This document shows positions 1-35,874 of a stretch of DNA of 64,000 nt, in pieces (the stretch's first letter is position 1; each line of letters begins with the position of its first letter). A program made the translations under genes and the position numbers. The DNA is from Trueperaceae bacterium. GTDB taxonomy: Bacteria > Deinococcota > Deinococci > Deinococcales > Trueperaceae. The stretch spans positions 3,008,001 to 3,072,000 of the forward strand of contig CBDCDZ010000004.1 in NCBI GenBank assembly GCA_965215565.1, in the 5' to 3' direction. Under the pieces are notes generated by a model. That model saw nothing but the letters and a program-made list of their open reading frames with translations. It was not told the origin of the DNA and made no database searches.

Positions 1-2050
1 GTCATCCTGGACGAGCGACTCACTGCCAGCTCTCGCCCCGCTCGAGCGATCAAGTCAGCCAGCACAACCGCAGCAGTGGAGTGACGCGGCGCTACCTGAG
101 GGAGAAGTCAGCGCGGTGGCAGAGCCAGACGCAGCCACCTCGACGCCAGCGGCGCAGAGCGAACCGCAAGCGCCGAGCAGCGCGTTGCCCGAGGTCCTCA
201 ACACGACGGACGCCCTCGATATCGTCGCGCCGAGCAGCCTGATCGCCCCTCTTCCGCCCGTTGGCGACGCCACCGAGGTGCTGCCCCCAGGTAGCGCTGC
301 GCCGCCAAGTGTAGGCGCAGGTCCGAGCGACGGCCCACTCGATATTGTGCCGCCCGCTGAGATTCAGCCCCCCACGGTTCCCATTATCGGCACGACGCCC
401 GACGCGATCACCGCAGTTGCGCCGCCACCCGACTGGCGCGAGGACACGCCGTTCGTGGAGGCGTTCGGCAGCGGCTCGTCAGGAAGCCGCATCTGTAAGA
501 CGGTGCGCGGGGTAAGAGTATGCGGCTCAGTCAAAAACGTCAACCGTGTGGCTGCAAGGATAAAGGCGAGCGCGAACGCCTCGACTGGTGGTAGACAAGT
601 TGAGTTAGAAGTCAGCGTGGAAGCACTTGAGTCCGCCTTGAACTATACAGCCGATCTTACAGAGCAGAAGCTCGGGAAAACCGCAGCGGATCAGCTTAGG
701 GAGATGTTCGGCGAACTAAGTAAGGGTGTTAGGGAAGGTAGCTTTGGAGAGATCAACTACGCAGACCTTTATAACCTCTCAGTAAACATTGCGACCGGTA
801 TTGATGTCGGCAATATCTTGGCAGGTGACATCTCCGACGCATACGAGTTCTATATAACACGTGTGCCCACTAGCGGTGAAACCTTTGAGCCTATTAACTT
901 CGGGTTTTTACGCGACCGAATGGCTGATGGGATGTATGTGAATGACTCTCGAGCCATTATCGGCTCAATGGAGATGCTTGATGCACGCGCTCAAGGCTAT
1001 GCTAACAGCATAGAGATGTGGTCAGACGAGGTTTCTGGTGACCGGCACCTGTTCTCTAACTTGGCTTTAATTGCCCCCTTCATACTGGACCTCCTGCCAA
1101 CAAGGTGGCTCAAAGGTTCACGAGCTGGGCGTGGAGGAAGGGCGCTTTCAGCGACTAGAGCTGGAAAATTGTCTGGTCTCGATGCTCAAACGCTCAATGC
1201 AAGGTTTAATCGGGGCAGGCCCTCAATACGATCTCGTATAGCTTACGGTTGTCCTAACAGCTTCTCCGCCGACACCCCCGTCGCCACCCCCTACGGTCTA
1301 ATCGCCATCGCCACCCTCGTCAAAGAGAAGATTCAGGAAATCTTCGGCTACAACGAAGAAACAGGTGAAGTCGATGTTTTCACCGTCACGCACTACCACG
1401 TCCACGACGACCCCGTCACTTATGACATCGTGGTTGACGATGATGTGACCGACAACATCCCCGGTGAACTCGTCGAGACTACCCCAGAACACCCCTTCTA
1501 CGTCTTAGGACAGTGGATTGACGCCGAAGACCTAGAAGTGGGAATGCCCCTAAGCACCTATGAGGGAACAGACCTCGTGCATAGCGGCACGGTCACCTCA
1601 ATCGAGCGCATCGAACAGACGCAGACGATGTACAACTTGACTGTTGATACTGCCCACACCTTCTTTGTGGGGGAGGGGCAGTGGTTGGTGCATAATTGCG
1701 GAGATTTAATATCACCACAGCGCCAGAATCACATTCTTAATGGTGATAGTACGGGTGGAGGACATCTATGGCCCGGTCAACCAGGTCATACACCATTTCC
1801 TCAGAGCTGGTCAGGCGACGATATTCTAGACAATCTCGCCGATATTGCAACCGATCCAAACACGCAATGGTATAGACAGGTTGGCGTAGACCCAATCTGG
1901 ACTAATAAAGGCGATCCCAGGAGATGGACTGCTTGGGAAACAAGAAATGGAGTAAGAGTCAAGATTGTATATGAGCCCGGTACAGGTGAAATCATTACTG
2001 GATTTCCTGATTCTAGACCTATCCCCAATGGATTGATCCAAGTACCCTAA
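1..2050 (+). CDS. Polymorphic toxin, 5'-truncated by the window edge: Pro-rich linker, helical region, pretoxin HINT domain (1259-1696), C-terminal bacterial EndoU-type RNase (1697-2050)
   Basis: Frame is open from base 2, so the true start lies upstream. HINT motifs SFSADTPV...TTPEHPFYV...MYNLTVDTAHTFFVG..WLVHN|C. Tip HILNGDSTGGGH...TPFPQSW...IITGFP is a MafB-type EndoU pattern. GC drops in the tip. Confidence 0.88.
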   Translation, partial: SSWTSDSLPALAPLERSSQPAQPQQWSDAALPEGEVSAVAEPDAATSTPAAQSEPQAPSSALPEVLNTTDALDIVAPSSLIAPLPPVGDATEVLPPGSAAPPSVGAGPSDGPLDIVPPAEIQPPTVPIIGTTPDAITAVAPPPDWREDTPFVEAFGSGSSGSRICKTVRGVRVCGSVKNVNRVAARIKASANASTGGRQVELEVSVEALESALNYTADLTEQKLGKTAADQLREMFGELSKGVREGSFGEINYADLYNLSVNIATGIDVGNILAGDISDAYEFYITRVPTSGETFEPINFGFLRDRMADGMYVNDSRAIIGSMEMLDARAQGYANSIEMWSDEVSGDRHLFSNLALIAPFILDLLPTRWLKGSRAGRGGRALSATRAGKLSGLDAQTLNARFNRGRPSIRSRIAYGCPNSFSADTPVATPYGLIAIATLVKEKIQEIFGYNEETGEVDVFTVTHYHVHDDPVTYDIVVDDDVTDNIPGELVETTPEHPFYVLGQWIDAEDLEVGMPLSTYEGTDLVHSGTVTSIERIEQTQTMYNLTVDTAHTFFVGEGQWLVHNCGDLISPQRQNHILNGDSTGGGHLWPGQPGHTPFPQSWSGDDILDNLADIATDPNTQWYRQVGVDPIWTNKGDPRRWTAWETRNGVRVKIVYEPGTGEIITGFPDSRPIPNGLIQVP

Positions 2051-2071
2051 TGTACAAAGGTGGTGAGCTAA

Positions 2072-2356
2072 GTGAACATAGCTGCTGAACTTGCGAAAAC
2101 TGCTGAGTCGTTCCGAACTCGTTTTAATGAAGTAGTGGTTTTTAGAGAGGTAGGGTTTGATGTAGTCTCTTTCATTAAAGACTATATTGACCATCGTGAG
2201 TACGGGCTTGCATTTGAAACTCTCTGTCAAAACTTGCTCGAGTACGACATCGCATTATCCGAAGAGGAGTACGTTAGGTTAGAACATCTTGGAAACGAGC
2301 TGTATCCTGAAAGTGATCACGATTGGTATCGCCTAAAGGAGTTGATAGCGTACTAA
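2072..2356 (+). CDS. MafI-like immunity protein cognate to the EndoU toxin
   Basis: Small acidic ORF directly after the toxin; motif YIDHREYGLAFETLCQNLLEYDIAL. Confidence 0.75.
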   Translation: MNIAAELAKTAESFRTRFNEVVVFREVGFDVVSFIKDYIDHREYGLAFETLCQNLLEYDIALSEEEYVRLEHLGNELYPESDHDWYRLKELIAY

Positions 2357-2383
2357 AGTCTCACCAGTAAAGTAACCATACCC

Positions 2384-2424
2384 CACCATCGCAAGAGAAC
2401 GATATTCTCTTGCGATGGTGTGTT
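2384..2424 (+). terminator. Intrinsic terminator after the toxin-immunity pair
   Basis: Perfect 16-bp stem CACCATCGCAAGAGAA / TTCTCTTGCGATGGTG followed by TGTT; the T-run continues as TTC after the IS. Confidence 0.65.
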
Positions 2425-2454
2425 TGATACTCCCCCGATTTCACGGAGACATAG

Positions 2455-3324
2455 TTAAGCAGCTTGAGCGAAGTGTACCCTCTCGAAATCATTAGGCGAA
2501 AGGTAGCCCAACGACGAATGTTTGCGCTTGGAGTTATAGAAGCCCTCCAAATAGCTGAAGATGCTGGTTCTGGCTTGCTGGCGGGTCTGGTAGACGTTGT
2601 TTTCAACCTCCTCGGTTTTGAGCGTGGCGAAGAATGATTCAACAACGGCATTATCGTAAGCATTGCCTTTACTCGACATGCTTTGGCTGATGCCTTTGGT
2701 GTTTAGCTCGGCTCTAAAGGCGTTGCTAGCATACTGAGCCCCTTGATCGGAATGATGCAGTAGTCCTGCTAGGGTGGAGCGCTGCCGCGTTGCCATTTCC
2801 AAGGCTGAGCGCGTCAAATCATCAGTCAGCCTCTTAGAGAACGCCCAGCCGATGACTTTGCGACTGAACAAGTCGAGCGTTACAGCAAGATAGAGCCAAC
2901 CTTCAGCGGTGGCAATGTAGGTGATGTCCGAGGCCCACAGCGCGTCAGGCGTAGCAACATCGAAGTTCTGCTTGACGAGATTCTCTGCTTTAGGGCGCTG
3001 ATGGTTCGAGTCCGTTGTGGTCTTATACTTCCGCTTTGTTTTACCTCTTAGACCCGCTGCTCGCATCAAACGCGCGACGCGCTTACGCCCGATGTTATAC
3101 CCAGCATCTTTGAGGTCTCGATAAATGCGCGGCGAGCCATAGGTGCAACGACTTCCACAATGGAACTTAATGATTTCCTTTGAGAGGGTTTTGTCCTCCT
3201 TGGCTCGCCTGCTCTGAGGGCGTTTCAGCCAATCATAAAAACCACTTACTGATACAGCTAACACCTCAGCCATCAGGCTGACCGCCCACCGACCTCGGTG
3301 TTCCTTCATAAAGGTGTACCTCAC
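2455..3324 (-). CDS. IS3 transposase OrfB (DDE/rve)
   Basis: WASDITY, HHSDQGAQY and DNAVVESFFATLKTE motifs. Confidence 0.95.
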   Translation of the reverse strand: MRYTFMKEHRGRWAVSLMAEVLAVSVSGFYDWLKRPQSRRAKEDKTLSKEIIKFHCGSRCTYGSPRIYRDLKDAGYNIGRKRVARLMRAAGLRGKTKRKYKTTTDSNHQRPKAENLVKQNFDVATPDALWASDITYIATAEGWLYLAVTLDLFSRKVIGWAFSKRLTDDLTRSALEMATRQRSTLAGLLHHSDQGAQYASNAFRAELNTKGISQSMSSKGNAYDNAVVESFFATLKTEEVENNVYQTRQQARTSIFSYLEGFYNSKRKHSSLGYLSPNDFERVHFAQAA

Positions 3325-3617
3325 GTGCTTTCCTTGGCGAAGAACCCAACTGCCTTTTTTAGAATGTCACGCTCCTGCTTGACCCGCTCGAGTTCCTTCT
3401 TCAAGCGCAAATTCTCCTGCTGGTCGGCGGTTAGCGCAACCTTGCCGTTGCCCGGAAAGGCTAGCTCACTACGCTCTTGCGCCTGTCTGCGCCATTTGTA
3501 GAGGCTATGGTCACTTACTCCTAGCTCTTCGGCTATCTGAACGACGCTCACACCCGGCTGCTGGCTCAGCCTCACCGCTTCTCGTTTGAACTCTGCTGTA
3601 TACGTTCTTCTCGTCAT
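3321..3617 (-). CDS. IS3 transposase OrfA (HTH)
   Basis: RRTYTAEFKREAV...ERDILKKA; A6G slippery motif near 3354-3360 on the minus strand; GTGA overlap with orfB. Confidence 0.93.
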   Translation of the reverse strand: MTRRTYTAEFKREAVRLSQQPGVSVVQIAEELGVSDHSLYKWRRQAQERSELAFPGNGKVALTADQQENLRLKKELERVKQERDILKKAVGFFAKEST

Positions 3618-3711
3618 GTCGCCTCCATTCTATTAGAGGCTTAACTGAGTCTCCGTTTTAGCGGGGCAATATCAGTTTTCTACGTCCATCTTTACGAATC
3701 AGATTTGTAAA

Positions 3712-4367
3712 CTGACTTCGCCGACGACTAGTCGTGTCAACTCATCAAAACCACCCCAGAGCACCCCTTCTACGTCCTAGGCGATTGGGTTGATGCAGAA
3801 GACCTAGAAGTTGGAATGCCCCTAAGCACCTACGAGGGCGAGAACCTCATCCATAGCGGCACGGTCACCTCTATCAAGCGCGTCGAAGAGACCCAGACGA
3901 TGTATAACCTGACGGTTGATACTGCTCATACCTTCTTCGTGGGTGAGGGTGAGTGGTTGGTGCATAATACGGGTGCGTGTAGCATCAATGTCGGGCACAT
4001 CTTTCATGGCGAGATAAACAGGCGTGGTAGAGCTGTTGGATTTCACCATGAAGGCTCGATAGGACATGAGGGATTTGCCAGAGTCGTAGGTAGAGGAACT
4101 GAGGATGTTCATGGGGTTTATAACGCAGTTGTAGAGGTCTTAGACCCCGTTAGTAATCAGTGGGTCCGCAAGAAGGTTCCTAACCATACGATGTTCCCAA
4201 GGGATTGGTCACGCTCTCAGGTACTAGAAGAGATTCGTGGAGCGTTCTCAAATGCTACATTCAACGGGAACAGTTGGACGGGTACCTCCCCAAGCAATGT
4301 GCCTATTGGAGGTTTTCTTGATCACAATGGAAACATTAACACGGCGTTTCCGATCTATACGCCGTAA
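3712..4367 (+). CDS. Orphan toxin cassette: C-terminal half of HINT plus a second EndoU-type toxin tip
   Basis: DNA closely resembles 1470-1696 up to WLVHN|T. Tip HIFHGEINRRGRAVGFHH...K...TMFPRDW...INTAFP. An in-frame TAG near 3729 precedes it, and the ATG at 3816 is internal to HINT. Confidence 0.82.
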
Positions 4368-4386
4368 CGTTCAAAGGAGTTAAGTC

Positions 4387-4734
4387 ATGGAAGCACAGGT
4401 GCGTATGTTTAGGGATGAAAGTGGGCTACCCAGAGCAAGGGCAGCCCACCCATTAGAAGCTTTGGCGAGCTTTTTGGAGTTTGATCTACAGGGAAGAAAA
4501 GAGGCTTCAACTGACCTTCTCAGTATCATTACGGAGGTTGAAACTCAAGAAATCTCAGAATGGGAGGGTACTGGAAATGCTCATACCCTCACACTGACCT
4601 TTGATAAAGCTCATATATACAATGAGTTTGCTATACCAATCTCTGAATGCGAACTTCCTCTTGCAGACTTTAGAGATGTTGTTGAGCGCTGGCTCGAGTT
4701 CTTGACTTATCAACGAAACGTTATGAAACCATAG
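4387..4734 (+). CDS. Putative immunity protein of the orphan EndoU (YacL/UPF0231-like)
   Basis: AAGGAG RBS; small acidic ORF after the toxin tip; ends with the ...DVVERWLEF pattern. Confidence 0.65.
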   Translation: MEAQVRMFRDESGLPRARAAHPLEALASFLEFDLQGRKEASTDLLSIITEVETQEISEWEGTGNAHTLTLTFDKAHIYNEFAIPISECELPLADFRDVVERWLEFLTYQRNVMKP

Positions 4735-4769
4735 GTCTTTGGTAAATGCCAGCTTGAGCAGCCGCCACC

Positions 4770-5125
4770 TGCAACAGCTTCTCCGCCGACACCCCCGTCG
4801 CCACCCCCGCAGGCGCAGTCGCCATCAGTACGTTCGTTGGTCAAGAGGGCACGGAAGTCACAACGTACAACGAGAAAACAGGGCAAGTCGAACCCAACAT
4901 CATCACCGAAGTTCACGTTCACGACGACCCCATTACGATAGTCCTCACCGTTGACTTTGACCTTACCGACGACCAGCCAGGCGAACTCATCGAAACGACG
5001 CCAGAACACCCCTTCTATGTCTTAGGTAAGTGGGTTGATGCAGAAGACCTAGAAGTCGGAATACCTCTGAGCACCTTCGGAAACACGAATCTCGTTCATG
5101 GCAGGGCAGTCACAAATGTCGATCG
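4770..5125 (+). pseudogene. Start-less HINT remnant with no C-terminal HN and no toxin tip
   Basis: Translates CNSFSADTPVATPAG...TTPEHPFYVLGKWVDAEDLEVGIPLSTF...VHG; in-frame TGA at 4755 upstream; not in the ORF track. Confidence 0.85.
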
Positions 5126-5227
5126 CTGCGTATCGAGTACTCCTCAAAAGGCTTTTCTCACATCTCTAGTCTCATGCGAGTTTTTCACCTCAAAAACGCT
5201 GTCTAATCCCTAGAGTAGAGAGCGGCT

Positions 5228-6160
5228 ATGAACCTCTCACGCTTTTTTCACACCTCATACCGTCGTCCCCTCCGTCTTCTACTTCCGCTTCTGCTCTGTA
5301 GCAGCGTCGCCTCCGCCCAACTCTTCCGCGAGACCGTCGATGCAGCGACCTTCGAGTTACAAGGACCGGTGCGCAAAGTCGAGCGTACCGTTACACTATT
5401 TGAAGGTGACGTTTCCACCCCGCTGCCCCACCTCGACACGATGACCTTCAATAAGAAGGGCTTTTTGAAAGAAGCCCTTAGCCGCGACACGGAGAGTGAC
5501 CGCGTAACCGAGCACATCGTCTACGACCACAACGGCTCAGGTAAGCTCCGCACGGTCGAGACGTACCAGCAGGAGCAACTTCTGCGCCGCGACGAGTCCC
5601 GATATCGAGGGCGGAACTGGCGGGCGACTTTCTACTACGACGCCGAAGAGCAACTCGAGGCGGTTGCCACCGTCAGGGGCTACCGCAAGGAAGTACCCGG
5701 GGGAGTGCCCCACCGGACCTACACCTTCGACGAGGCAATGCGCCCCTTAGTCGAGCGCACCTACTTCCCCGATGAGGATGAGCCCGTACGTACGGTTCGC
5801 TATACCTACGAGGACGGTCGGCTAACCAAGGCCGTCGAGCGCGGACCCGAGGGTGAGTTGCTCTCGCGCGAAGTCTACATCTACGACGAGTCAGGTCGAG
5901 TCGAAGTCAAACGCTTCTACGACGCCACCGACAGCGAGCGCACCCGCACCCGCTACCGCTACGACGAGCACGGCAACGTCGTCAACGAACGCACGGTCGA
6001 CGGTGAAGATACGCTGGTTGCTTTGCTCCGCTACCGCTATACCTACGACGAACAGGGCAACTGGCTGACCAAAACGACTCTCTTCCGCGACAGCGAAGAG
6101 GCCGAGTTCGAGCAGCAGAGCCTCGAGACCCGCACCATCAAGTACCACCGGGAGGGCTGA
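5228..6160 (+). CDS. Exported YD/RHS-like repeat protein
   Basis: Signal peptide LLLPLLLCSSVASA|Q; repeated YxYDxxGR/GN units (YIYDESGR, YRYDEHGN, YTYDEQGNW). Confidence 0.75.
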   Translation: MNLSRFFHTSYRRPLRLLLPLLLCSSVASAQLFRETVDAATFELQGPVRKVERTVTLFEGDVSTPLPHLDTMTFNKKGFLKEALSRDTESDRVTEHIVYDHNGSGKLRTVETYQQEQLLRRDESRYRGRNWRATFYYDAEEQLEAVATVRGYRKEVPGGVPHRTYTFDEAMRPLVERTYFPDEDEPVRTVRYTYEDGRLTKAVERGPEGELLSREVYIYDESGRVEVKRFYDATDSERTRTRYRYDEHGNVVNERTVDGEDTLVALLRYRYTYDEQGNWLTKTTLFRDSEEAEFEQQSLETRTIKYHREG

Positions 6161-6161
6161 G

Positions 6162-7295
6162 ATGACCGCTAAACTCGGTATCTTAGGCGGTATCAGTCTC
6201 GCCCTGCTCGCGCTGAGCGCCTGTAGCAGCGGCGACGGCACGCCCCCCTCGCTCGCCATCTTGTCCCCCGCAGCAGGTTCCCCCGTCTCGGGTACGACAA
6301 CCGTACAGGTCTCCACACCGGAGAACGCCAACGTCGAGCGCGTCACCCTCTATGCACGCGGCGCAGGCAGCGAGCGGCGTGGTCGTCCGGTCGGCTCCGC
6401 CGTGCAGGGTCCCCCCTTCGTCGTCTCCTGGAACACCACCGACGTGCCCAACCAGGCTGAGTTGGAGCTTCTAGCAGTCGGTCGCGACAGCGACGGCGAC
6501 GACGGCGAGTCCGACCCCGTCAAGGTGCGTGTGCAGAACGGCGGCGCGCCCAGCTTGCAACTCCTCACCGCGTTCACCATCGCGCCCGAGCCGGAGGCGG
6601 GTTTCAACGTGCAGACCCTATCGGGTCTAGTCAACGCTGCCGAGGTGCAGCCCCCTGCGGGCTTCGTCGCGCCGAGCCCTCTCCCTGACTCGGCTTTGGC
6701 GACTATGCAGACGGAGGGAGTGCGTGACTACGTGCTCGAGTGGCAGTGGGAGCCCTACCCCAGCGCTGAGAGCTACCGCATCATGCGTAGCGACGACGAT
6801 CTGGTCGGTCCCTATGAGGAAGACCGCTGGCAGAGCGCCGGGGCGGGCACGGGCGCGCAGAAGTTCTCGAAGACGATGGACGGGGCGAAAGCGGGCGACC
6901 GCTTCTACGGCGCGGTGAGAGCCGAGACGGAGGGTCAGATCACGGGCTACTCGAACGCCGACAGCGCCACCTTTTTGCCGCCGCAAGGGACGACCGCACC
7001 CGACGACGGTGCTCGCGTCGACAACGGTCGTCCTGTCCTGAGTTGGCCCGCCACCCCCGGCGCGGATGGCTACCTCTACTATCTCTACGACCGCGACCCC
7101 TGGGCCGAAGGCGCGACGCTCCTGTGGAGCAACTTCCCTCAGAGCGACGCAGGTCGCAGCGCCAGCTATCCCGGAAGCCGTGACGCCCTGCCGAGCGGCA
7201 CCTATAGCTGGTGGGTTGCGGGCATCTCCTTCGACGCGAACGGCAAAGCGGACGGCTTCACCTTCAGCGAGCCCCGGAGCTTCCAGGTCCCCTGA
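6162..7295 (+). CDS. Lipoprotein with Ig-like and FN3-like beta domains
   Basis: Lipobox LSAC; ILSPAAGSPVSGTTTV...WNTT Ig-like pattern; PVLSWPATPGADGY...PSGTYSWWV FN3-like pattern. Confidence 0.7.
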   Translation: MTAKLGILGGISLALLALSACSSGDGTPPSLAILSPAAGSPVSGTTTVQVSTPENANVERVTLYARGAGSERRGRPVGSAVQGPPFVVSWNTTDVPNQAELELLAVGRDSDGDDGESDPVKVRVQNGGAPSLQLLTAFTIAPEPEAGFNVQTLSGLVNAAEVQPPAGFVAPSPLPDSALATMQTEGVRDYVLEWQWEPYPSAESYRIMRSDDDLVGPYEEDRWQSAGAGTGAQKFSKTMDGAKAGDRFYGAVRAETEGQITGYSNADSATFLPPQGTTAPDDGARVDNGRPVLSWPATPGADGYLYYLYDRDPWAEGATLLWSNFPQSDAGRSASYPGSRDALPSGTYSWWVAGISFDANGKADGFTFSEPRSFQVP

Positions 7296-7298
7296 GTC

Positions 7299-7329
7299 AA
7301 AAAGCTCACCCCCCAGGGGCGAGCTTTTT
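7299..7329 (+). terminator. Probable intrinsic terminator
   Basis: AAAAAGCTC...GAGCTTTTT stem with an inner GC hairpin, immediately after the stop at 7295. Confidence 0.55.
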
Positions 7330-7370
7330 CCCTTCCTAAAGGTTTCAAACCCTCTACAGTAGCCCTTGCG

Positions 7371-9407
7371 ATGCGCCCTTCTCTGCCTCCCTTACGCGCC
7401 CTCTGCGCTCTCGCTCTACTCCTCTTGAACGCCTGCGGTGGGGGCGAGTCACCCTACACGCTGACCGCCGTGCTACCCTCGCCGGTGACACCCGGTGAAA
7501 CAGCCGTCGTGTACGGCACACTCCCTCAAGATACAACCCTCTCACTCGACGAGACCTTGGTGCTCGGCACGCTGGTGCCCGGCGGTTTAGAGTTCACCGT
7601 ACCCGAAGCGGCGATAGCCGGGAGCCAGGTCCTCTCGGCTCGTATCGGCGGTCAAACGCTCTCCGGTGCCCTGCAAGTCGTGCCGCGCCTCGACACGGCG
7701 ACGTTGGCGGGGAACACCCTTACGGTACACGGTGCGGGCTGGCCTCTCGAAACATCGGCAGAAACGCCGGTCACGCTCGAGGTGGTAGGCAAAGCGCTTA
7801 CCCCTACGCTGAGCGCCGGGCAGCTTCAAGCCACTTTGCCCGACCTGACGCGCTACGGCTCCCTTTCGGTACGAGTCAAGGTCAACGACCAGGTGAGTAA
7901 CGCGCTGAACGTGGTGCGCGAGGCGGGTGCGGTTCAGGGTAAAGTGGTGTTCCCGGCGGAATCTGATGCAGCCCGCATACCAGCGTCACTAGAGGTTCAA
8001 GCAACAGACACCTCTAATTTCAGCGCCTTGCTCGTCTTCGCGGACGAAGCAGAACTCGAAGACCTCGAACTCGAGGGGCTAGAGCATATAGAGTCTCTCC
8101 CCGCCCTCGGCGTCACTCGGCTGAGCTTCGCCACCCGCGCCCAGGCTCGAGCAGCCTATCTATCCCTCAAAGCAGCAGGATTCGGTCTCGAGTACGACCT
8201 CCCCATTCGCACCGACGGCTTTGCAAGCTTGCAAGCGGATGTTCCCGATGAACCTGGCACGGGTCAGTGGCATCTGCCTCTACTCGGTCTCGAGCCCGCT
8301 TGGGAAGCCACGAAGGGCGGAGGTGTCGTCGTCGCGGTTGTCGATACCGGCGTCCAGCTCGATCACCCCGATTTAGTCGCAAACCTCCTACCCGGTTACG
8401 ACTTCGTGGACGGCAACGACCAGCCTTACGACCTCGCTGGACACGGCACGCATGTGGCGGGGCTTGTCGCCGCGAACGGGCAGGTCCTAGGAACCGCGCC
8501 TGAAGCTAAGCTTCTACCCATCCGCTCCCTCGAGGGCACCGCAGGCGGCAGCGCCTTCACCGTAGCGCAGGGCATCTTGTGGGCTGCAGGGCTAGGTGAG
8601 ATGGAGAACCCCAATCCCGCCGACGTCATCAACCTCTCCTTGGGCACGAGCGGCTATTCGGCCACGTTAGCGGGCGCGGTGACTGCGGCGCAGGCGACGG
8701 GTGTCGTGGTGGTAGCCGCTACGGGAAACAGCAGCGGTCCCTTGGCTTACCCTGCCGCCCTACCCGGCGTTCTCTCAGTGACCGCTTTAGCCGGACCCGA
8801 CATCGCGTATCAGCCCTGGTACGCCAACAAAGGAACCGGCGTGTGGGTTACAGGCTACGGTGGCGACACCACCCAGGACCAAGACAGAGACGGCTTTGAC
8901 GACGGCATCCTCTCAGCGGATTTGGGAGGCTACGCCCGGCGTATGGGCACCTCGATGGCTGCGCCGCAGGTCGCTGGCTTAGCCGCACTCGCGCTGGCTT
9001 CGGGGACGCCTGCTGAACTGGTACGGGATACGTTAGGTCACACCGCCACCGATCTCGGCGTGATGGGCTACGACGCCTCGTTCGGCTACGGTTTGGCGAC
9101 GGGGAGAACGGCTGGTCCAAGTACCCCTCGCAGCTACGTATTGGCGCTCGCCGAAAACGAAGTTGTGGGTTGGTCCTTGGTGCAAGCTGACGGGTCATAT
9201 CGACTCGACAATCTCCCTGTAGATCGTTCACTCGCCCTCGTCGCTGCCAGCGACGAGGATGGCGACACCGTCCTCGGCGAGTCTGGTGAGTTGCTCTCGG
9301 TCCCTGTTCCCTTTACACCCACGCCTGGCGACGTGCTCGAAGCGCGCGACCTCACCCTCACCCTCTCTGAGGGTTCCACATCCTATTCTTTGGAGGCTAC
9401 CCCCTAA
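7371..9407 (+). CDS. S8 (subtilisin-like) serine protease lipoprotein with N-terminal IPT/Ig-like domains
   Basis: Lipobox LNAC; catalytic motifs VAVVDTG, HGTHVAG and GTSMAAP. Confidence 0.92.
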   Translation: MRPSLPPLRALCALALLLLNACGGGESPYTLTAVLPSPVTPGETAVVYGTLPQDTTLSLDETLVLGTLVPGGLEFTVPEAAIAGSQVLSARIGGQTLSGALQVVPRLDTATLAGNTLTVHGAGWPLETSAETPVTLEVVGKALTPTLSAGQLQATLPDLTRYGSLSVRVKVNDQVSNALNVVREAGAVQGKVVFPAESDAARIPASLEVQATDTSNFSALLVFADEAELEDLELEGLEHIESLPALGVTRLSFATRAQARAAYLSLKAAGFGLEYDLPIRTDGFASLQADVPDEPGTGQWHLPLLGLEPAWEATKGGGVVVAVVDTGVQLDHPDLVANLLPGYDFVDGNDQPYDLAGHGTHVAGLVAANGQVLGTAPEAKLLPIRSLEGTAGGSAFTVAQGILWAAGLGEMENPNPADVINLSLGTSGYSATLAGAVTAAQATGVVVVAATGNSSGPLAYPAALPGVLSVTALAGPDIAYQPWYANKGTGVWVTGYGGDTTQDQDRDGFDDGILSADLGGYARRMGTSMAAPQVAGLAALALASGTPAELVRDTLGHTATDLGVMGYDASFGYGLATGRTAGPSTPRSYVLALAENEVVGWSLVQADGSYRLDNLPVDRSLALVAASDEDGDTVLGESGELLSVPVPFTPTPGDVLEARDLTLTLSEGSTSYSLEATP

Positions 9408-10765
9408 TGCCACGTTCGTCACTTCTACGCTTTAGGCGCTCTCTGCGCTCGAGTCTCTATTTGCTCACACTCCTGTTCGCTGCTACAACGTTCGCCCAGG
9501 TCAACTTGAGCGCCACCTATAGTGGCGACGTGGTGACCTTTGTAGGCGACCACAATATCCGCTACTTGGCAGACTACGCCACGAACACATTGGTATTGCC
9601 CGGCTCAGTGCTGAGCGACAAAGAGACCAAGTTTCCTGCGGGCTACGCGGTCACTTTAGAAGATGACCAAGTCAGAGTCGAAGTAGGTCAACCTTTTCGC
9701 GTTACCCTCTCCAGCAACGAGCGTGTCCTGACGCTCGTGCGCGGTGAGACGCTGGGTGCAGTGCCCGAGCGGATCGCAGGTGACGACCGCGCCCCAGTAA
9801 TGTACCGCTTAGCTAACGCTGAGCCGAGCCAAGTCGCCTCGCACCTCAGGAGCTTGTACGACTTACCCGTCGAGGTGGACCAGCGCCAACGCGCTCTCTT
9901 AGTGCGGGTCAATCCGCAGGACCGGACGCTCGTCGATGAGATCGTTACCGCTTTAGACGAAGCCCGTCCCCAAGTCATGTTCGAAGCCGAGATCGTCGAG
10001 GTCAACCAGTCGGTCACGCAGAGCTTGGGCATCAACTACGACTCGCTCTTCTCCTTTACCCTGACCGAGGGGGAAGTGCCTTCGGTCTTCGGTGCGGGTC
10101 CCTTCTCGCGCAACGGTATGTCGCTGACGCTTGGGTTGAACCTGCTCAAGACGAACGGAGCCGCTAACGTACTCGCGCGACCCAGGGTCACGACCTTAGA
10201 CGGCGTCCAAGCGCAGATCAACGCCACCCAATCGTTTCCAGTCGTCGTCTCCAGTTCGAACGGTCAGGAGAGCGTGCAGAACATCACTACGGGTATCCAG
10301 CTCTCGATGACGCCTAAGATCAGCCCGGACGGACAGGTGGAAGCCGAGTTGTCCATCTCAGTCTCGACACCGACAGGCATTACCTCGCAGAAGGTTCCTA
10401 CGTTTAGCAGCCGAGAAGCCTCCACTACAGTCAGAGTCGCCAACGGCGAGCCCATCGCCATCGGCGGGTTGTACGAGAAGCGTACCCTTAAAGGGGTGTC
10501 GAAAGTCCCTATCTTAGGGGACATTCCCATCCTCGGCGCACTCTTCACCTCCACCTCGACCGAGGAGCGCGAAACCGACCTGGTGATCGTGGTTACGCCG
10601 CGCATCGTAGATATGCCCAACGTGCGCGCGGTGCGCTCGGACGTAGCGCCGGTGGTCGTCGAGACGCCCGCAGAAGAAGAGACGCTCGAGACAGCGGCGG
10701 ACGAGGCGAGCACGAGCTTGGTAAATCCACTGCCACAAGTGGAAGAACCCGGCGAGCTACCTTGA
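9407..10765 (+). CDS. Outer-membrane secretin (GspD/PilQ superfamily) with a single N3-type domain
   Basis: LDEARPQVMFEAEIVEV, LARPRVTTLDG, TTVRVANGEPIAIGGL, KVPILGDIPILGALF and DLVIVVTPRIV; start overlaps the protease stop (TAATG). Confidence 0.92.
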   Translation: MPRSSLLRFRRSLRSSLYLLTLLFAATTFAQVNLSATYSGDVVTFVGDHNIRYLADYATNTLVLPGSVLSDKETKFPAGYAVTLEDDQVRVEVGQPFRVTLSSNERVLTLVRGETLGAVPERIAGDDRAPVMYRLANAEPSQVASHLRSLYDLPVEVDQRQRALLVRVNPQDRTLVDEIVTALDEARPQVMFEAEIVEVNQSVTQSLGINYDSLFSFTLTEGEVPSVFGAGPFSRNGMSLTLGLNLLKTNGAANVLARPRVTTLDGVQAQINATQSFPVVVSSSNGQESVQNITTGIQLSMTPKISPDGQVEAELSISVSTPTGITSQKVPTFSSREASTTVRVANGEPIAIGGLYEKRTLKGVSKVPILGDIPILGALFTSTSTEERETDLVIVVTPRIVDMPNVRAVRSDVAPVVVETPAEEETLETAADEASTSLVNPLPQVEEPGELP

Positions 10766-10823
10766 GCCCTTCGATGTGAAGAATTGAGCGTAGCACAACG
10801 AGGGGGAGTCGATAGACTGACGC

Positions 10824-11270
10824 ATGATTCGTCTGTGCTTAGTTTTTCTGCTCCTTCTTCTTGTCGCCTGTACACCAGCGACGGAGCCTGCACCCGAGCC
10901 GCCAGTGAGCACGAGTGATCCCGAGGTCTATAAGCGACTCATCGCGCCCTTTGAGGCTGACCTCGAGCGCTTAGGCGTCACCCTCACCGGCTACCAGACC
11001 TACCGCTACGAAGGCAATAACCCGAACGGCTTCATCACGGCTATCAACACCTTCTACCGCGCGTACCCCGGCTTCTGCCCCCTAGTCGACGCCTTCTACG
11101 CTGCGCCTAACAGCGCGCAGTTTATGACCGTGGCGAGTAACAACGGGACGCAAGTTCGCGTCTTCTTATATGACCAGTCGCGCCGACCGCGTTTGACGTA
11201 CGCTTACGTCGAAGGGGTGAGTCAGCAGCTCTTACCGGCGGTGGTTTGTGAGACGGTGACGGGGGACTAG
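10824..11270 (+). CDS. Small lipoprotein of unknown function (possible pilotin-like partner)
   Basis: Lipobox LVAC; TAGACT 5 nt before the ATG; follows the secretin. Confidence 0.65.
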   Translation: MIRLCLVFLLLLLVACTPATEPAPEPPVSTSDPEVYKRLIAPFEADLERLGVTLTGYQTYRYEGNNPNGFITAINTFYRAYPGFCPLVDAFYAAPNSAQFMTVASNNGTQVRVFLYDQSRRPRLTYAYVEGVSQQLLPAVVCETVTGD

Positions 11271-11344: not shown

Positions 11345-12964
11345 CTATTCCTGGTAGAAGTTGCCAGCGATGTTCGCGTCGGTAACTTCTACCCATCCCT
11401 CTTTCACTGCCTCTATCCCCATGAGCTTCTCCGGCTCTCTGCTGACAACCATCAGCACCGCGTCCTCTTCGACGAGCCATTCTTCGAGTTTACTGAAGTT
11501 ACGCCGCACCGTCCGCGAATCGTATTTACCGTACCCGCAAAGCAAATAGCGCTTCTTGCCTTCAGGTGAACGCAAGCTGATAAGGAATCGCCCTTCCTTC
11601 TTCAAATACGTCCAGCCTTGCGCCTCGAGCTTCTCCCTCACTCTGCGTCTCATCACCTGCCCAGCAGCAGTATTGGGCGTCAGAGGAGGACATTGGCATA
11701 CGCCGAGCGCCCTTCTACCTCGTGAGCCAATCGAGACTAACGTGCCCAAAGGACTGTCCAACGTCGTGAGGTAGCGTTGGTTGAGCAAATACTCGGAGTC
11801 GACCACTCGTGTGCAAACAACCTCTATACGATCTGCGCCATGCTCCAACAAATCTTGCAGGCAGGCTTTGTCTTGCCCGGTCAAGTCACCGTAAGCATTG
11901 GGCGGTTTGTGTTCTTTCTCAAATCGGAGTCTTGCCTCATGCGCTTCGTCTACGGCAGTTTCTAGCCAGAGAGGAACCTCGCCCATATCGCCTAACAAAT
12001 ACGACGGAGCCATCTCAGTCTGCGCATAAGCCTGGATAAAGCGCTCGGACCAATCTCCGAACAGCCACGCTGCCATCCTCAAAAGCTGATGACGGTTGAT
12101 AAAGGGCTGGTATTCGAAATCGTTCGGCGTGTCCGCGAGGTCAAAGGCCATATCAGGTATGCCCACACGCTCGGCGACATGAGCGCCGAACGGTCCTGTA
12201 TGGCGCGTACCAGTGAGGGCGGTAAGGAGAGGGCGCAACCCGTCGAAATACGCCAGGCTCGAGTGTACGGACTCATGCGCCTTGCCGTGACTCGGAAGCG
12301 TTGTGTAGCCGGTCTCGAGAGCGTTCAGCAACTTCGCCTGAAACGTTCTGATGTCAGGGTCAGCTACCTTCAACCTCGAGGGGTCGTTCCCGCTCAAATC
12401 TTTGCCGCACCGATGACACACGTTGATAGGAACATCGGAAGGCTCGGTTTTGTTCGTATGCACACCCATATCGACTTTGTGAGGCGCGACGGGCGCTTTG
12501 CAGTTCGGGCAGCGGTCGAGGAGCAACGTCCCGTGTTCGGGGCAAACCGTCACAAAAGCAAGTCGCCACAACCGCCGGAAGTAGGGCGGGTCCTGCGCTA
12601 AGCATAGGGGACAATACTGCAAGCCGTAGCGTTTTCGGGAACGATGATAGACACCTGCGTGCAGTATCCAGCGGTTGTTGCTGTTGGGACTGTGTTTGGC
12701 GTAGAGCTTGCCTGCGTAGGGCCATAAGGTGGTGTGGTAGAGGCTCGAGACGTGCTGACCGGACTGGAAAGCTAAGGGCAAGAGTAGCTTCAGCGGAGCC
12801 GACTTGTCCACATCGCGGTTCCACACCTGGTGGTCGGGGACGGTGAGCTTGGTGAAGCTATGGAGCTTCTGCAAGTTCTCCTTGGCGAAGCGGATGAGCC
12901 AGCTACTGAGCAGTTCGTCGGGTAGGGGGTGTGGGTGAACTGGCCAGACGTTACCCGAGATCAT
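11345..12964 (-). CDS. tniQ: TniQ/TnsD-family target selector with an extra C-terminal domain
   Basis: PLPDELLSSWLIR N-terminus; YCPLCL...WRL..VTVCPEH..LLDRCPNC zinc motifs plus CHRCG. Confidence 0.9.
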   Translation of the reverse strand: MISGNVWPVHPHPLPDELLSSWLIRFAKENLQKLHSFTKLTVPDHQVWNRDVDKSAPLKLLLPLAFQSGQHVSSLYHTTLWPYAGKLYAKHSPNSNNRWILHAGVYHRSRKRYGLQYCPLCLAQDPPYFRRLWRLAFVTVCPEHGTLLLDRCPNCKAPVAPHKVDMGVHTNKTEPSDVPINVCHRCGKDLSGNDPSRLKVADPDIRTFQAKLLNALETGYTTLPSHGKAHESVHSSLAYFDGLRPLLTALTGTRHTGPFGAHVAERVGIPDMAFDLADTPNDFEYQPFINRHQLLRMAAWLFGDWSERFIQAYAQTEMAPSYLLGDMGEVPLWLETAVDEAHEARLRFEKEHKPPNAYGDLTGQDKACLQDLLEHGADRIEVVCTRVVDSEYLLNQRYLTTLDSPLGTLVSIGSRGRRALGVCQCPPLTPNTAAGQVMRRRVREKLEAQGWTYLKKEGRFLISLRSPEGKKRYLLCGYGKYDSRTVRRNFSKLEEWLVEEDAVLMVVSREPEKLMGIEAVKEGWVEVTDANIAGNFYQE

Positions 12965-13889
12965 TGAACAGGAGTTCAGCCTCTTTGCGCCGCTCCGAAG
13001 GCAAGACCCAGTCGATCCCCTTCAGGGCATTCTCGTCGATGAACTCCGTTCCCTGCCGTATCGCATAGACCGCCGCTTCGTTCAAGATGGTCGAGAGTTC
13101 GCCGATATGCCCCTCGGACATGTCGTGCAGCTTGACGCCGAGCTTAGCGAGGTTCGAAGGGCGCTTCAGGGGAATGAGCTTCTCAAAGCTCATCAACAGC
13201 TTCGCGAACCCTTCGTCCTTTTTCCACAGCGGGAGCGGGGCGGGCTTGAAGCGGTTGGCGAGCTGCGGGTCGATCTGAAGGGCGCGTAACGCATCCTTCG
13301 TCCCTACCCCGACGATAGGAATTCGCAATTCGTTTCCTAAGTATTTGATGGCTTGCAAGACCCGTCGCTGCTGCCGCGCCGTACCGGAGAGGACGTGATG
13401 GAGTTCGTCGATGATCAGCACCTTCGTCTCGATACGCTGCAAGAGTCCCATCGCCTGGTGCTGCTTGCGGCTAGCTTTATCGGTCTCTTTGAAAGGCGCG
13501 AAGAGCTTCTTGAGAAGTTCCTCGTATAGCCGCCCTTCGTCCGCCTCGGGCGGTGCTTGAAAGAGCACCACCGGGATGTGTATGGACTCGCCACTCAGGT
13601 TATCGTCCGCCGGATTATCGGCTAAAAACTTCCTGACCAACTCGGTCTTGCCGTTGTTCGTCGGACCGACGATCAGCAGATTGGGCATCCGGTTCGTCTT
13701 GGGATGAGTGATGAGGTCTTGTAGCTGATCGCGGATTTTGTTGGTGCGGGTGTAGCCGATCCAGCGCGGACTTTTGATATGGAGGATGCGGTCCTCTTCG
13801 GTGTCGCCCAATACTTCCCGCGCCCTCGGGGTCAGATGCGCGTAGGGCTCGAGCGTTTCGCTCGGGCGGGGACGCTGTAACGTGCTCAT
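12951..13889 (-). CDS. tniB: TniB/TnsC AAA+ transposition regulator
   Basis: PRWIGY, Walker A GPTNNGKT, Walker B IIDELH, DPQLANRF. Confidence 0.93.
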   Translation of the reverse strand: MSTLQRPRPSETLEPYAHLTPRAREVLGDTEEDRILHIKSPRWIGYTRTNKIRDQLQDLITHPKTNRMPNLLIVGPTNNGKTELVRKFLADNPADDNLSGESIHIPVVLFQAPPEADEGRLYEELLKKLFAPFKETDKASRKQHQAMGLLQRIETKVLIIDELHHVLSGTARQQRRVLQAIKYLGNELRIPIVGVGTKDALRALQIDPQLANRFKPAPLPLWKKDEGFAKLLMSFEKLIPLKRPSNLAKLGVKLHDMSEGHIGELSTILNEAAVYAIRQGTEFIDENALKGIDWVLPSERRKEAELLFNDLG

Positions 13890-15788
13890 TTAGCTCTCCT
13901 GCAATTCGTCGAAGGGCGTGATGCTCGAGAGATCGAACGGGAAAGCCTGCTCCTGCGCGTCGTCTCGGCGCTCGGGCGGCGGCTTCCCGGCGGGTTTAGA
14001 GGGTTTCGTAGCCTTAGCGTGCTCCGTGCGGCGCTGCACGTTCCGGCGGGCGCTCCGGGTCTTCCTGGCGGCTTCTTCCTCGATTTCGCGCATTCGAGCC
14101 ATAGCCGCGAAGAGGTCGTCCTCGTTGATCTTCTCCGCACCCTGCTTCTTGAGGTGGCGGACGACTTTGCGCATCTCCCAGAGGCTCGCAGGGGGGCGGA
14201 TTACGTTCGCATAAGGGATTTCGTAGTACCTGTCCAGTTCGGGGTCCAGGAAGTAGATGCGGCTCATATCTCTAGGGTCGTAGCGGATGATGAACTTGCG
14301 CTTCTCGTTCTTATGCTTCGGGTTCGGCGCGTGTATCCAGCGCCTCAACACGTCGCTGTAGTAGTCCACATAGTAGTAGCGGACGCCGTAGTTCTGCACC
14401 GTCGTCCGGTCGTAGAAGGGCATTAGGTCGAGCCGCAACCGCTCTTCGTCCAAAACGAAGGCCGGCAGCCCGCGCCCCGGCTGCTCGTCGTTGCCGAGGA
14501 TGGCTTCTTCGTAGCGTACCAACGGGCTCGTGAAGATTTCGCTGTGGACGCGGTTATGGTACTTGACCAAGAGTTGGGCGAGCCAAGTTTCGAACTCCGA
14601 CAGGGTCATGACGGCGCTCCCGGCGGAGTCGTAGTCGCGCTTCTCCTGAACGTTGTGGAAGGTGGTGCCGGGGAGCTTATGAATATCCGCCGCGAAGGTG
14701 TCCATGAGCCGCTCGATGTGACCGCCGAACTCAGCTTTCCCTTTAGGGCGGAAGTCACTCTCGATGTCGTACTCCTTGCAAGCCCGGCGGAGCATCTTGC
14801 CTCTGAACTCCTTAGCGGTGTCCGCGTGGACTGCCTCCGGCAACCCCCAGCACGGCCAGGAAGCCTCGACGCCGTACTGCGCCAGCCACCGCTCCTTAGG
14901 CAAGATAGCGCGGGTCAAGCAGGAACCGACAGCGAAGGCGTTGGGGCTGTCGAAGGAGATATAGAAGCCCAAGCACATGCGGCTGTAGACGTCGATGGCG
15001 AGGGTGATCCAGGGTCGTCCGATGGCGATGCGATAGACGTCGTCTACGAGCTCCAGGTCTACCTTAGTGTGGTCTATCTGCACGGTCTGCAAGGGAAAGT
15101 TACCATCGGGAAAGGAGCCCGTTTTGGGATCGTACTTCTGTTCGGCGGCGCGTTTGCCGTGACGCTTACTGAGCCGCTTCTTCTCCTCGATGGCGGCGAT
15201 TCGCCGCCGGATTGTCGAGTCTCCCGGTGGTGTCAGTTTGGGTGTGGCGTTACGGCATTTGAGAAGGACGTCGTCGATAGTGTCTTGAACCGAGCGTCGT
15301 TGAGGCGTGAGGTAGCGCTCATTGATGGCTTCCTCGATAATCGCTTCGAGCGCCGGGTCGAGCCGCTTGCCGGACTTGCCCGGCTTGTTAGGGATGAGAT
15401 CAGTGACGCGCCCACCCCCTTCGTAGCGTTTGAGCCAGCGGTAGAGGGTGTTGGTACTCACACCGACCTTCTTCGCTCTCTGGGCGACGTCGGCACGGGT
15501 ACGGCGGCGGTCTTTGATAGCGAGCAGCGGGCGGATAGCTTTGTAGCGTTCGGCTCCGATGTTCCACTCGGCATCGGGTGTGGCGACGAGATCGTAGCCG
15601 ACCCCTTTGCCTTCTTCGGAGACGGGGGGCAGGTCCGGCTTGAGGGTGTGAACGTTCAGGCGTTTGAGTTCTCCGGAAGTCTCCTCGCGACCCAGGACGG
15701 TTTGCATGTCGAGGACGTGGGTGATGATGTAGTGCTTGCCCGCGTAGGTGACGGGGTTGCCGATGGCGGGCTCGACGGATATGGACAT
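13890..15788 (-). CDS. tnsB: TnsB/TniA DDE transposase (Mu-type C-terminus)
   Basis: HTH (VSTNTLYRWLKRY), QIDHT, LAIDVYSR, HADTAKEF, GHIER, RYDPRDMS. Start moved to the ATG at 15788 after an AGGAG RBS. Confidence 0.93.
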   Translation of the reverse strand: MSISVEPAIGNPVTYAGKHYIITHVLDMQTVLGREETSGELKRLNVHTLKPDLPPVSEEGKGVGYDLVATPDAEWNIGAERYKAIRPLLAIKDRRRTRADVAQRAKKVGVSTNTLYRWLKRYEGGGRVTDLIPNKPGKSGKRLDPALEAIIEEAINERYLTPQRRSVQDTIDDVLLKCRNATPKLTPPGDSTIRRRIAAIEEKKRLSKRHGKRAAEQKYDPKTGSFPDGNFPLQTVQIDHTKVDLELVDDVYRIAIGRPWITLAIDVYSRMCLGFYISFDSPNAFAVGSCLTRAILPKERWLAQYGVEASWPCWGLPEAVHADTAKEFRGKMLRRACKEYDIESDFRPKGKAEFGGHIERLMDTFAADIHKLPGTTFHNVQEKRDYDSAGSAVMTLSEFETWLAQLLVKYHNRVHSEIFTSPLVRYEEAILGNDEQPGRGLPAFVLDEERLRLDLMPFYDRTTVQNYGVRYYYVDYYSDVLRRWIHAPNPKHKNEKRKFIIRYDPRDMSRIYFLDPELDRYYEIPYANVIRPPASLWEMRKVVRHLKKQGAEKINEDDLFAAMARMREIEEEAARKTRSARRNVQRRTEHAKATKPSKPAGKPPPERRDDAQEQAFPFDLSSITPFDELQES

Positions 15789-15796
15789 TGTGTCTC

Positions 15797-16474: not shown

Positions 16475-16484
16475 ATACACAACC

Positions 16485-16607
16485 AGTACCAACAATTACA
16501 GTCATATCGTCAACCAGTCCCAGTAATCGAGAAAAGCAGTCACACGGATTGTGACCGAATACCCCTATTATGATCCTTATTAGTACCATTGATTGTGGTG
16601 GTTGTCA
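16485..16607 (-). repeat. Transposon end with about four imperfect TnsB-binding repeats
   Basis: Minus-strand 16-mers CACAATCAATGGTACT (16582-16597), CACAATCCGTGTGACT (16538-16553), CTCGATTACTGGGACT (16516-16531) and TGTAATTGTTGGTACT (16485-16500); terminus 5'-TGACAACC. Confidence 0.7.
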
Positions 16608-35776: not shown

Positions 35777-35874
35777 GCGTCGCACGCGGCTCACGCAAAA
35801 GGCGTTCCGTTTTGTATAGACGGACGCGGCAGTCGCCTTACGCAATATTACGCATAAGCTTTGCGGAAACTCCA

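Follow-up and report, generated by a model that had tools for sequence, protein, structure and literature searches.

Introduction

Contact-dependent inhibition (CDI; CdiA/CdiB, a type Vb secretion system) exports a giant toxin by Sec and passes it through its own adjoining translocator without an ATPase, the toxin having a variable tip and the system being accompanied by immunity genes and orphan cassettes. WapA represents a Sec-dependent toxin of the Rhs type. To our knowledge, characterised secretins all work with an ATPase-driven machine. The N0 domain of a secretin is the usual docking site for GspC or PilP. Here we describe a locus in which a secretin lies beside an Rhs toxin without such a machine. 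It is located in a stretch of 64,000 nucleotides from a Trueperaceae bacterium of the phylum Deinococcota (the window; assembly GCA_965215565.1, contig CBDCDZ010000004.1, positions 3,008,001 to 3,072,000 of the forward strand), in which genes for an Ig/FN3 lipoprotein, an S8 protease, the secretin and a small lipoprotein (the cassette) follow the toxin gene. With a probability of roughly 0.58, we read the cassette as a dedicated secretin pore without a motor of its own, combined with S8 processing, that serves one Deinococcota-specific family of Rhs toxins.

Secretins have been co-opted repeatedly (Denise 2019, the accessible part of which gives no match to 'Deinococc'), and the first 300,000 characters of Zhang 2012 (PMC3482391) contain neither 'secretin' nor 'Deinococcus'. 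A literature search, with supplements and most subscription papers outside its reach, found no description of this cassette, which apparently belongs to a conserved, undescribed polymorphic-toxin system. The system is a candidate interbacterial weapon for Deinococcota, none having been found described in the literature searched.

Linkage of the cassette to one Rhs toxin family

An earlier note on this DNA, made from its letters alone, had named a HINT-EndoU toxin array followed by secreted and lipid-anchored proteins, and open reading frame (ORF) and Pfam checks recovered the named genes on the forward strand. Those of the system are as follows.

2..2050, forward strand: Rhs/YD polymorphic toxin, C-terminal 682 amino acids (aa) of 3,129 aa; whole ORF G000:C4:3000661-3010050
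1253..1699, forward strand: PT-HINT domain (NSF...VHN/C) of the toxin, expected to release the 117-aa tip; Pfam E 2e-14
1700..2050, forward strand: EndoU ribonuclease toxin tip; Pfam PF14436, E 6e-11
2072..2356, forward strand: cognate immunity protein, MafI family; NF033691, 55 bits against a cut-off of 31
6162..7295, forward strand: core lipoprotein with a Big_7 Ig domain and FN3-like domains
7371..9407, forward strand: core lipoprotein protease with two IPT-like domains, a putative prodomain, a subtilase domain and a C-terminal beta domain
9407..10765, forward strand: core minimal secretin, AMIN - N3 - secretin barrel, translationally coupled to S8
10824..11270, forward strand: accessory 148-aa lipoprotein with an alpha/beta fold

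Signal peptides and lipoboxes, called by eye from sequence, are present as had been described (lipoboxes LSAC, LNAC and LVAC, with the lipobox cysteine being invariant in all three lipoprotein alignments), and so is the coupling of the S8 and secretin genes, which overlap as TAATG. The toxin N-terminus, proposed for retrieval from the upstream contig, was recovered with its signal peptide in an ORF of 3,129 aa that starts 7,339 nucleotides (nt) before the window.

Phylum-wide searches covered 364 Deinococcota genomes (G-numbers denote individual genomes, G000 being the host), and neighbourhoods of up to 20-40 kb per side of all 30 other cassette-secretin loci were compared with the window proteins. 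The window secretin gave 31 matches with E<=3e-50 in 28 genomes, host included, followed by housekeeping secretins from E 3e-28, while a secretin match of any kind was found in 348 of the 364 genomes. Across the 30 other loci the gene order of Ig lipoprotein, S8 and secretin is fixed, with the small lipoprotein gene following in some. An Rhs toxin of the family was found no more than 8 kb away at 21 of them, counting G013, where the start of a toxin reaches the contig edge, with 20 others. As for further loci, the toxin is 14 kb away in G246, HINT cassettes are found in G121b and G172, the contigs of G138, G139, G143 and G173 end 0.02-5.2 kb upstream of the cassette, and the G032 locus is a 165-aa secretin fragment. 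Toxin placement varies by genome (divergent from, upstream of or downstream of the cassette). Given that the toxin changes orientation and position and yet stays near, the linkage survives rearrangement.

Genome counts gave the same picture. The toxin N-terminus was found in 25 genomes, 21 of them with a cassette secretin (a further match in G149 being weak and generic), the Ig/FN3 lipoprotein in 26 (23 with the secretin), the IPT-S8 N-terminus in 23 (22 with it; strong matches only, excluding 7 weak single-IPT matches), and 18 of the 21 genomes having all three core genes also have the toxin N-terminus. The small lipoprotein, suggested earlier as a component, is frequent but not obligatory: it occurs in 19 genomes and accompanies the secretin in 16 of 28. 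At cassette loci it always stands directly 3' of the secretin, while G261 and G262 have it on its own, and in G002 its neighbour is a secretin fragment. Joint decay of cassette parts was seen in G257, G002, G172 and G246. Cassettes are intact in the named Deinococcus isolates NC_017793.1 and NZ_CP031163.1, and on two named Deinococcus plasmids, which possibly overlap with the phylum set, the cassette adjoins an RHS gene. In addition, five toxin clusters and listed secretins have longest contigs of identical size (17109, 102470, 28920, 14673 and 35857), an indirect sign of linkage; one of these five clusters contains a partial Meiothermus protein.

As a control, no cassette component was found at any of 80 generic secretin loci (24 of these of at least 8 kb). 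By contrast, components are present at 7 of the 8 loci within the control set that belong to the subfamily, a metagenome contig with Rhs-HINT-Ig-S8-secretin being among the seven; 4 of the 8 seem to repeat loci of the phylum set. When the 2,780 ORFs lying within about 20 kb were clustered all against all, no other family recurred in more than 5 genomes (shadow frames of the cassette genes aside), and no ATPase, platform or pilin gene was conserved near the 30 loci. Correlations in mirror-tree comparisons (rho 0.25-0.63) are uncorrected for kinship and not taken as proof of co-evolution. Likewise, the carriers are related genomes spanning four families, and P values were given no weight.

Pfam scans covered 25 and 24 window ORFs (most, not all, of the longer ones) and 16 upstream ORFs. 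Pilin, secretion ATPase, platform protein, TpsB, type VI secretion system (T6SS) and type VII secretion system genes were all absent among them, in agreement with the machinery-free window described before. The earlier note would have abandoned its toxin-delivery proposal if secretin-S8 clusters occurred mostly without toxins or if a conventional secretion system lay upstream. The clusters do occur with toxins, not mostly without, and 47 kb of upstream sequence hold no conventional secretion system; linkage and a dedicated system are therefore well supported.

That the system here rides on a Tn7-like element, lies on plasmids in two named Deinococcus records and is patchy across the phylum raises the possibility that unrelated genes passively hitch-hike together on mobile elements. 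However, the cassette proteins have diverged to 30-55% identity over four families and are still found together, toxin position and orientation shift while linkage holds, and other passengers (the YD gene, a LuxR/PPC module and restriction genes) are not common to cassette loci. Passive hitch-hiking is thus largely refuted and very improbable.

Further observations concern individual loci. A family of 120-190-aa membrane-anchored proteins adjoins the cassette in G141, G144, G128 and G139, which belong to one taxonomic family, and is possibly a lineage-specific accessory gene. In the region G043:C2:387175-467174, some 60 kb contain a pair of cassettes together with three or more toxin genes, some of them frameshifted, which suggests duplication and decay. 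In G257, a 1,015-aa Big_9/cadherin/FG-GAP lipoprotein (L036:16575-19619) is divergent from the lone secretin, often the toxin's position, and is possibly an alternative client or an adhesin.

A minimal secretin distinct from the housekeeping secretin

The host has two secretins, the second of which is located in a pilMNOPQ-aroC-aroK-aroB operon (gene names from sequence) and is an ortholog of DR_0774 (E 2e-47). Cassette secretins are about 400-450 aa in length. In a protein-database search with the window secretin, 119 of the 120 listed matches had E<=2e-104, the remaining one standing at 3e-59, and every listed match with an organism name was from Deinococcota. In a tree of 74 sequences, including 4 named references and metagenome secretins thinned to 16 at 65% identity, the 31 sampled cassette secretins formed one clade (Shimodaira-Hasegawa-like approximate likelihood-ratio test, SH-aLRT, 99.9; FastTree 1.0), apart from 23 housekeeping secretins (99.9). 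The phylogeny that had been proposed as a check thus returned a discrete clade and, with four named references, gave no clear root for it among PilQ and GspD.

An AlphaFold model of the cassette secretin (mean predicted local distance difference test score, pLDDT, 76.5) places an AMIN domain at residues 1-87 and an N3 domain at 99-153, followed by the barrel. The model contains no N0 domain and leaves no space for one, and the C-termini indicate that the S domain is missing as well. Pfam gave nothing for the AMIN region, whereas its predicted fold resembles AmiC (Z 8.6, root-mean-square deviation (rmsd) 2.9, 85 residues aligned) and the AMIN domain of Myxococcus xanthus PilQ (Z 8.4, rmsd 2.7, 78 aligned). 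In the barrel and N3 region, structural likeness to pIV (Z 12.9) and GspD (Z 12.7) is tied.

These features bear on an alternative in which the cassette secretin is an accessory to the housekeeping type IV pilus or type II secretion system (T2SS)-type motor, the cassette being a toxin-specific gate with adaptors and hence a T2SS variant. In this reading, the folded toxin would be driven out by the ATPase, platform and pilins encoded on the chromosome. Elsewhere on its chromosome the host possesses machinery of the type IV pilus/T2SS type with its own secretin, PilB/PilT-type ATPases, 4 T2SSE-family matches, a T2SSF platform and the pilMNOPQ-type operon, so that use of a motor in trans is possible. 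Databases label the cassette secretin GspD, and the T2SS passes folded Sec substrates. By contrast, the model places AMIN directly before N3 with no room for N0, the secretin scores far under the cut-offs for GspD (169 against 351) and PilQ (164 against 284), and, with the possible exception of the Ig lipoprotein, nothing conserved beside it would serve as an adaptor to an inner-membrane platform. We regard this alternative as unlikely.

A Deinococcota-specific Rhs toxin family without the canonical Rhs core

The host toxin possesses a Sec-type signal peptide, RHS repeats, PT-HINT and EndoU. Its N-terminal part consists of the signal peptide, a family-specific N-terminal module and a YD shell that contains an insert without annotation (about 500-950), and its C-terminal part of a P/S/T/A-rich linker, a pre-toxin region, HINT and the EndoU tip. 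Strong conservation of the mature N-terminus sets these toxins apart as a discrete family, with 65 representatives at E<=1e-30 among 1.84 billion, whose named members are Deinococcota bar one metagenome-assembled genome labelled Pleurocapsa. Family toxins are 2,500-3,900 aa in length and contain YD/RHS repeats (PF05593 in 16/16, TIGR01643 in 12/12). A search of the N-terminal profile against the PDB gave no match at E<0.1, Pfam gave nothing for the insert or the pre-toxin region, and no PAAR match was found in the toxins. Export by Tat was considered and rejected, twin arginines occurring in only some of the signal peptides.

The Rhs-associated core (TIGR03696) was detected in none of 12 family toxins, compared with 12 of 14 generic Rhs controls. 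In an alignment of 18 toxins, only the opening YDPxG remains of the PxxxxDPxG autoprotease of the Rhs core, and a conserved D-x-T-x-SLAD...W...PF motif together with the P/S/T/A-rich linker occupies the place of that core. In 16 of 21 toxins, the stretch after the linker measures 561-775 aa. Teneurin-like proteins are reported to have a cargo of about 15 kDa and retain the DPxG protease (PMC13018210). Since the post-linker arm is far bigger than such a cargo, the C-terminal arm may lie outside the shell.

The tips vary among 23 homologs (EndoU here, PIN-like in another), and 14 of the 21 toxins of full length possess HINT. Orphan HINT cassettes accompany this locus and those of G103, G116, G124 and G121b. 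Variable inserts were named FG-GAP, CBM60-like, PA14 and tachylectin, which suggests that they are target-binding modules. A second, broken toxin copy in the host (G000:C4:429341-440563) is split by unrelated genes and a Tn3-like transposase with an integrase, and its N-terminus resembles the truncated toxin of G257.

Unlinked toxin copies far from any cassette occur in G121, G119, G128, G029 and the host. They could be taken to mean that the cassette is tied to the toxin without being its exit route, the toxin leaving through the housekeeping secretin, vesicles or other outer-membrane machinery, and the cassette secretin serving in export or display of the S8 and Ig lipoproteins, in surface anchoring of the toxin or in uptake between kin. 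This is consistent with the secretion of MafB, a Sec-exported polymorphic toxin of Neisseria, without PilQ (PMC4287609), with a 330-kDa substrate being large for an N3 constriction of about 67 Å (PMC10828601), and with three drafts (G123, G132 and G170) in which the toxin was found and the cassette secretin was not. Most genomes with unlinked toxins, however, also have the cassette, and one cassette can probably serve unlinked copies in trans. Moreover, the conserved toxin N-terminal module occurs almost only with the cassette secretin, as would fit a recognition signal, and no other dedicated outer-membrane route was found: the T6SS sheath gene PF05943 was detected in 0 of 30 carrier genomes with its control positive, and a genome-wide search for ShlB (TpsB) matched in 0 of 30, its positive control likewise giving none. 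Such a non-exit role is improbable, marginally more so than that of an accessory to the housekeeping motor.

Lipoproteins and the S8 protease

The S8 protein is a 678-aa lipoprotein whose D/H/S triad and lipobox cysteine are invariant in 19/19 sequences, and the protease looks intact. Pfam recognises IPT domains (TIG) in 8 of 21 and nothing for the prodomain or the C-terminus; Atlas gives IPT/TIG clusters at 0.83, which we use as a lead only. In Deinococcus radiodurans, the belt of the secretin (GspP) is an IPT lipoprotein, and its cap (GspT) is another lipoprotein (PMC10828601). The S8 N-terminal profile matched the belt protein DR_1364 with E 0.016, level with generic IPT domains, and profile-profile comparison with GspP-like proteins gave 94% with signal peptides included, the other two lipoproteins staying below 1%. 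We follow a protease ring at the secretin pore as a lead drawn from these profiles. A GspP-like IPT lipoprotein near G000:C4 1290213 (E 1.6e-11) is the probable belt of the housekeeping secretin.

The small lipoprotein is predicted with confidence (pLDDT 88.6) as an alpha/beta domain with two invariant mature cysteines. Its best structural match, PA1624 (Z 6.2, rmsd 4.2, 110 aligned), looks unrelated; Foldseek gave nothing at E<=0.001, no sequence match was found in the PDB, and Atlas matches stayed below 0.9. The Ig lipoprotein has no relatives among the viral contigs searched.

Proposed route of export and its weighing

Given that the toxin travels with a secretin, a protease and lipoproteins, the locus points to an undescribed exit route. 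In the first step, the toxin would cross the inner membrane by Sec; the signal peptide is seen, and Sec is favoured over Tat. In the second, the cassette secretin, held to the wall by AMIN as the predicted fold suggests, would be the outer-membrane pore, with Sec and the folding YD spiral driving passage much as in CdiA/CdiB, the secretin replacing TpsB. The lack of N0 and of an adjoining ATPase, platform or pilin makes it probable that the secretin passes the toxin without its own motor. In the third, the S8 protease, which is lipid-anchored and may encircle the pore through its IPT domains like the GspP belt of D. radiodurans, would make the cut done by the core aspartyl autoprotease in canonical Rhs proteins, the toxin being its presumed substrate. 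In the fourth, the Ig/FN3 and small lipoproteins may act as assembly factors, chaperones or substrate adaptors. In the fifth, lectin- or adhesin-like inserts would bind target cells, HINT, if present, would free the tip, and by established polymorphic-toxin logic EndoU would degrade target RNA while the adjoining immunity gene protects kin. The minimal secretin-based route with protease and HINT processing proposed in the earlier note thus holds in its linkage and its dedicated character, while HINT is optional and export stays at the level of inference.

Several points weigh against a dedicated motor-less pore with S8 processing. Passage of the toxin through the cassette secretin is something we infer from sequence, and the housekeeping secretin, PilB/PilT-type ATPases and platform protein of the host could do the work. 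Neisseria MafB, likewise exported by Sec, leaves the cell without PilQ. The carrier genomes are kin, so that co-occurrence counts overstate independence. In G257 the secretin and small lipoprotein are intact without S8 or Ig lipoprotein, and its toxin, elsewhere in the genome, is truncated by an insertion sequence; in G173 the cassette is broken and a search for the toxin N-terminus found none. In G123, G132 and G170, which are drafts of 170-820 contigs with toxins running off contig ends, the toxin family was found with a housekeeping secretin only. Toxin and secretin distances correlate weakly (rho 0.34). With regard to processing, the likeness between the S8 IPT region and GspP is weak after removal of signal peptides (55%), and a divergent autoprotease may reside at the D-x-T-x-SLAD motif.

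A wider claim is that the cassette represents a new type of secretion system, in which a secretin that has no ATPase, platform or pilus would thread or tether Rhs toxins of 300-400 kDa across the outer membrane, while a ring of lipid-anchored subtilase around it would release them by cleavage. The pair would thereby stand in for TpsB as well as for the Rhs autoprotease. We put this forward tentatively, at somewhat less than even odds. If true, a motor-less toxin secretin would be a new secretion route as well as a minimal model of secretin gate opening, and it would offer an answer to how Sec-exported Rhs toxins cross the outer membrane without T6SS. With its four or five genes the system is small and directly testable, named Deinococcus isolates carrying it intact.

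The toxin array, its neighbours and the carrier element

The remaining features of this part of the window are listed below.

2455..3617, reverse strand: IS3-family element interrupting the cassette array, outside the system (rve, HTH_21, HTH_Tnp_1)
3700..4367, forward strand: orphan cassette with the C-terminal half of HINT and a second EndoU tip
4387..4734, forward strand: putative immunity protein of the orphan tip, UPF0231/YacL-like (PF06062, E 9e-7)
4749..5140, forward strand: remnant of a HINT domain that lacks a start and a toxin tip, its DNA 73% identical to that of the main HINT
5228..6160, forward strand: 310-aa secreted YD-repeat protein, a locus-specific passenger
11345..16607, reverse strand: tniQ, tnsC, tnsB, tnsA and the right end of a Tn7-like element

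HINT, EndoU and immunity genes are present as expected from the HINT-EndoU array proposed earlier, although just one toxin of that array is full, the rest being an orphan cassette and a remnant. Over 233 nt, the orphan HINT DNA matches that of the main HINT at 85% identity, and the orphan cassette is a putative recombination template. The GC content is 43-54% in the toxin/immunity stretch (500-5,500) compared with 59-67% in the cassette (5,500-11,000). The 310-aa YD gene, which had been counted as a component, was dropped: it was found at 0 of the 30 other secretin loci, and weak homologs in 3 of 5 relatives lie at other places. A promoter and terminator scan gave signal at chance level. A hairpin with flanking A and T runs at 7296-7335, seen by eye and missed by the scan, lies between the Ig-lipoprotein and S8 genes and could set the ratio of their products.

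The whole system is carried by a Tn7-like element of 46,339 bp (G000:C4:2978269-3024607; window -29731 to 16607) that splits comM, with inverted ends, a 5-bp GGCGG target duplication, tnsABC and tniQ. Elements of the Tn7 type that target comM are already known (PMC10293859), and the Tn6022-like ones share tnsABC, tniQ, inverted ends, a 5-bp duplication and the comM insertion with this element. Its other cargo includes a Fic protein, a ComEC-like MBL/LTD protein, a UvrD-nuclease, a type III restriction-modification pair and an XRE/ImmA-type protein. Upstream of the toxin lies a module of lipoprotein, secreted protein, LuxR and PPC-lipoprotein genes (G000:C4:2996915-3000273), with copies of 65-96% identity near 3700152, 1539503 and 826538 of the host genome. 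It was rejected as a component, being repeated at 2-3 other host sites and absent from cassette loci; G170 has a distant relative of the module's 234-aa gene ahead of its toxin. Farther along the window and outside the system, two tandem unrelated S8 proteases with fervidolysin-type prodomains occupy 34361-38479, and two long ORFs (49752-53012 and 58682-60565; 1,086 and 627 aa) gave no Pfam match at E<=1e-5.

Comparison with known systems

The cassette with its toxin is a polymorphic toxin system in the broad class and falls outside canonical Rhs, S8-linked, T2SS/type IV pilus, CDI and T6SS systems. Rhs toxins of the 'T2SS/Sec' class (Zhang et al. 2012, PMC3482391) share the signal peptide, RHS repeats, HINT, tip and immunity with it, but they are listed there without signature neighbour genes, whereas a fixed cassette is found here and TIGR03696 is not. 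Rhs proteins delivered by T6SS have a PAAR/VgrG leader in place of the signal peptide seen here, where no PAAR match was found. The S8-linked polymorphic toxin systems (Li, Tan, Zhang 2022, PMC9424270) likewise connect an S8 gene to a signal-peptide toxin with immunity, for which processing was proposed. They consist of a single-domain S8 with BetaH toxins in Bacillales and Actinobacteria, while the cassette combines a multidomain S8 lipoprotein, Rhs toxins of 2,500-3,900 aa, a secretin and lipoproteins in a diderm phylum, the difference from BetaH being judged by overall architecture. Neisseria MafAB/MafI (PMC4287609) has Sec export, an EndoU tip, MafI-type immunity and an adjoining partner gene in common with this locus, without Rhs, secretin or protease.

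Among secretins, the D. radiodurans DR_0774 complex (PMC10828601) is likewise a Deinococcota secretin without an S domain, and its lipoprotein partners include an IPT belt, IPT-like domains being present in the S8 N-terminus here. DR_0774, however, possesses N0-N3 and a flange domain and is the ortholog of the host's other secretin, the cassette secretin forming a separate clade. Secretins of T2SS, type IVa pilus and phage pIV share the barrel and N3 with it, and its AMIN is as in PilQ, but the cassette differs from T2SS and the type IVa pilus by lacking N0 and a linked ATPase, platform and pilin, the toxin and protease being linked instead.

Type V secretion is listed in Table 1 of PMC3482391. 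The two-partner system of CDI differs in that its pore is an Omp85 TpsB and its toxin has a filamentous haemagglutinin scaffold. Here, no TpsB gene was found at the locus or conserved near its homologs, and a secretin is combined with a YD/Rhs toxin and an extra protease and lipoproteins. From this comparison, two-partner CDI is most likely the closest working analogue of the cassette.

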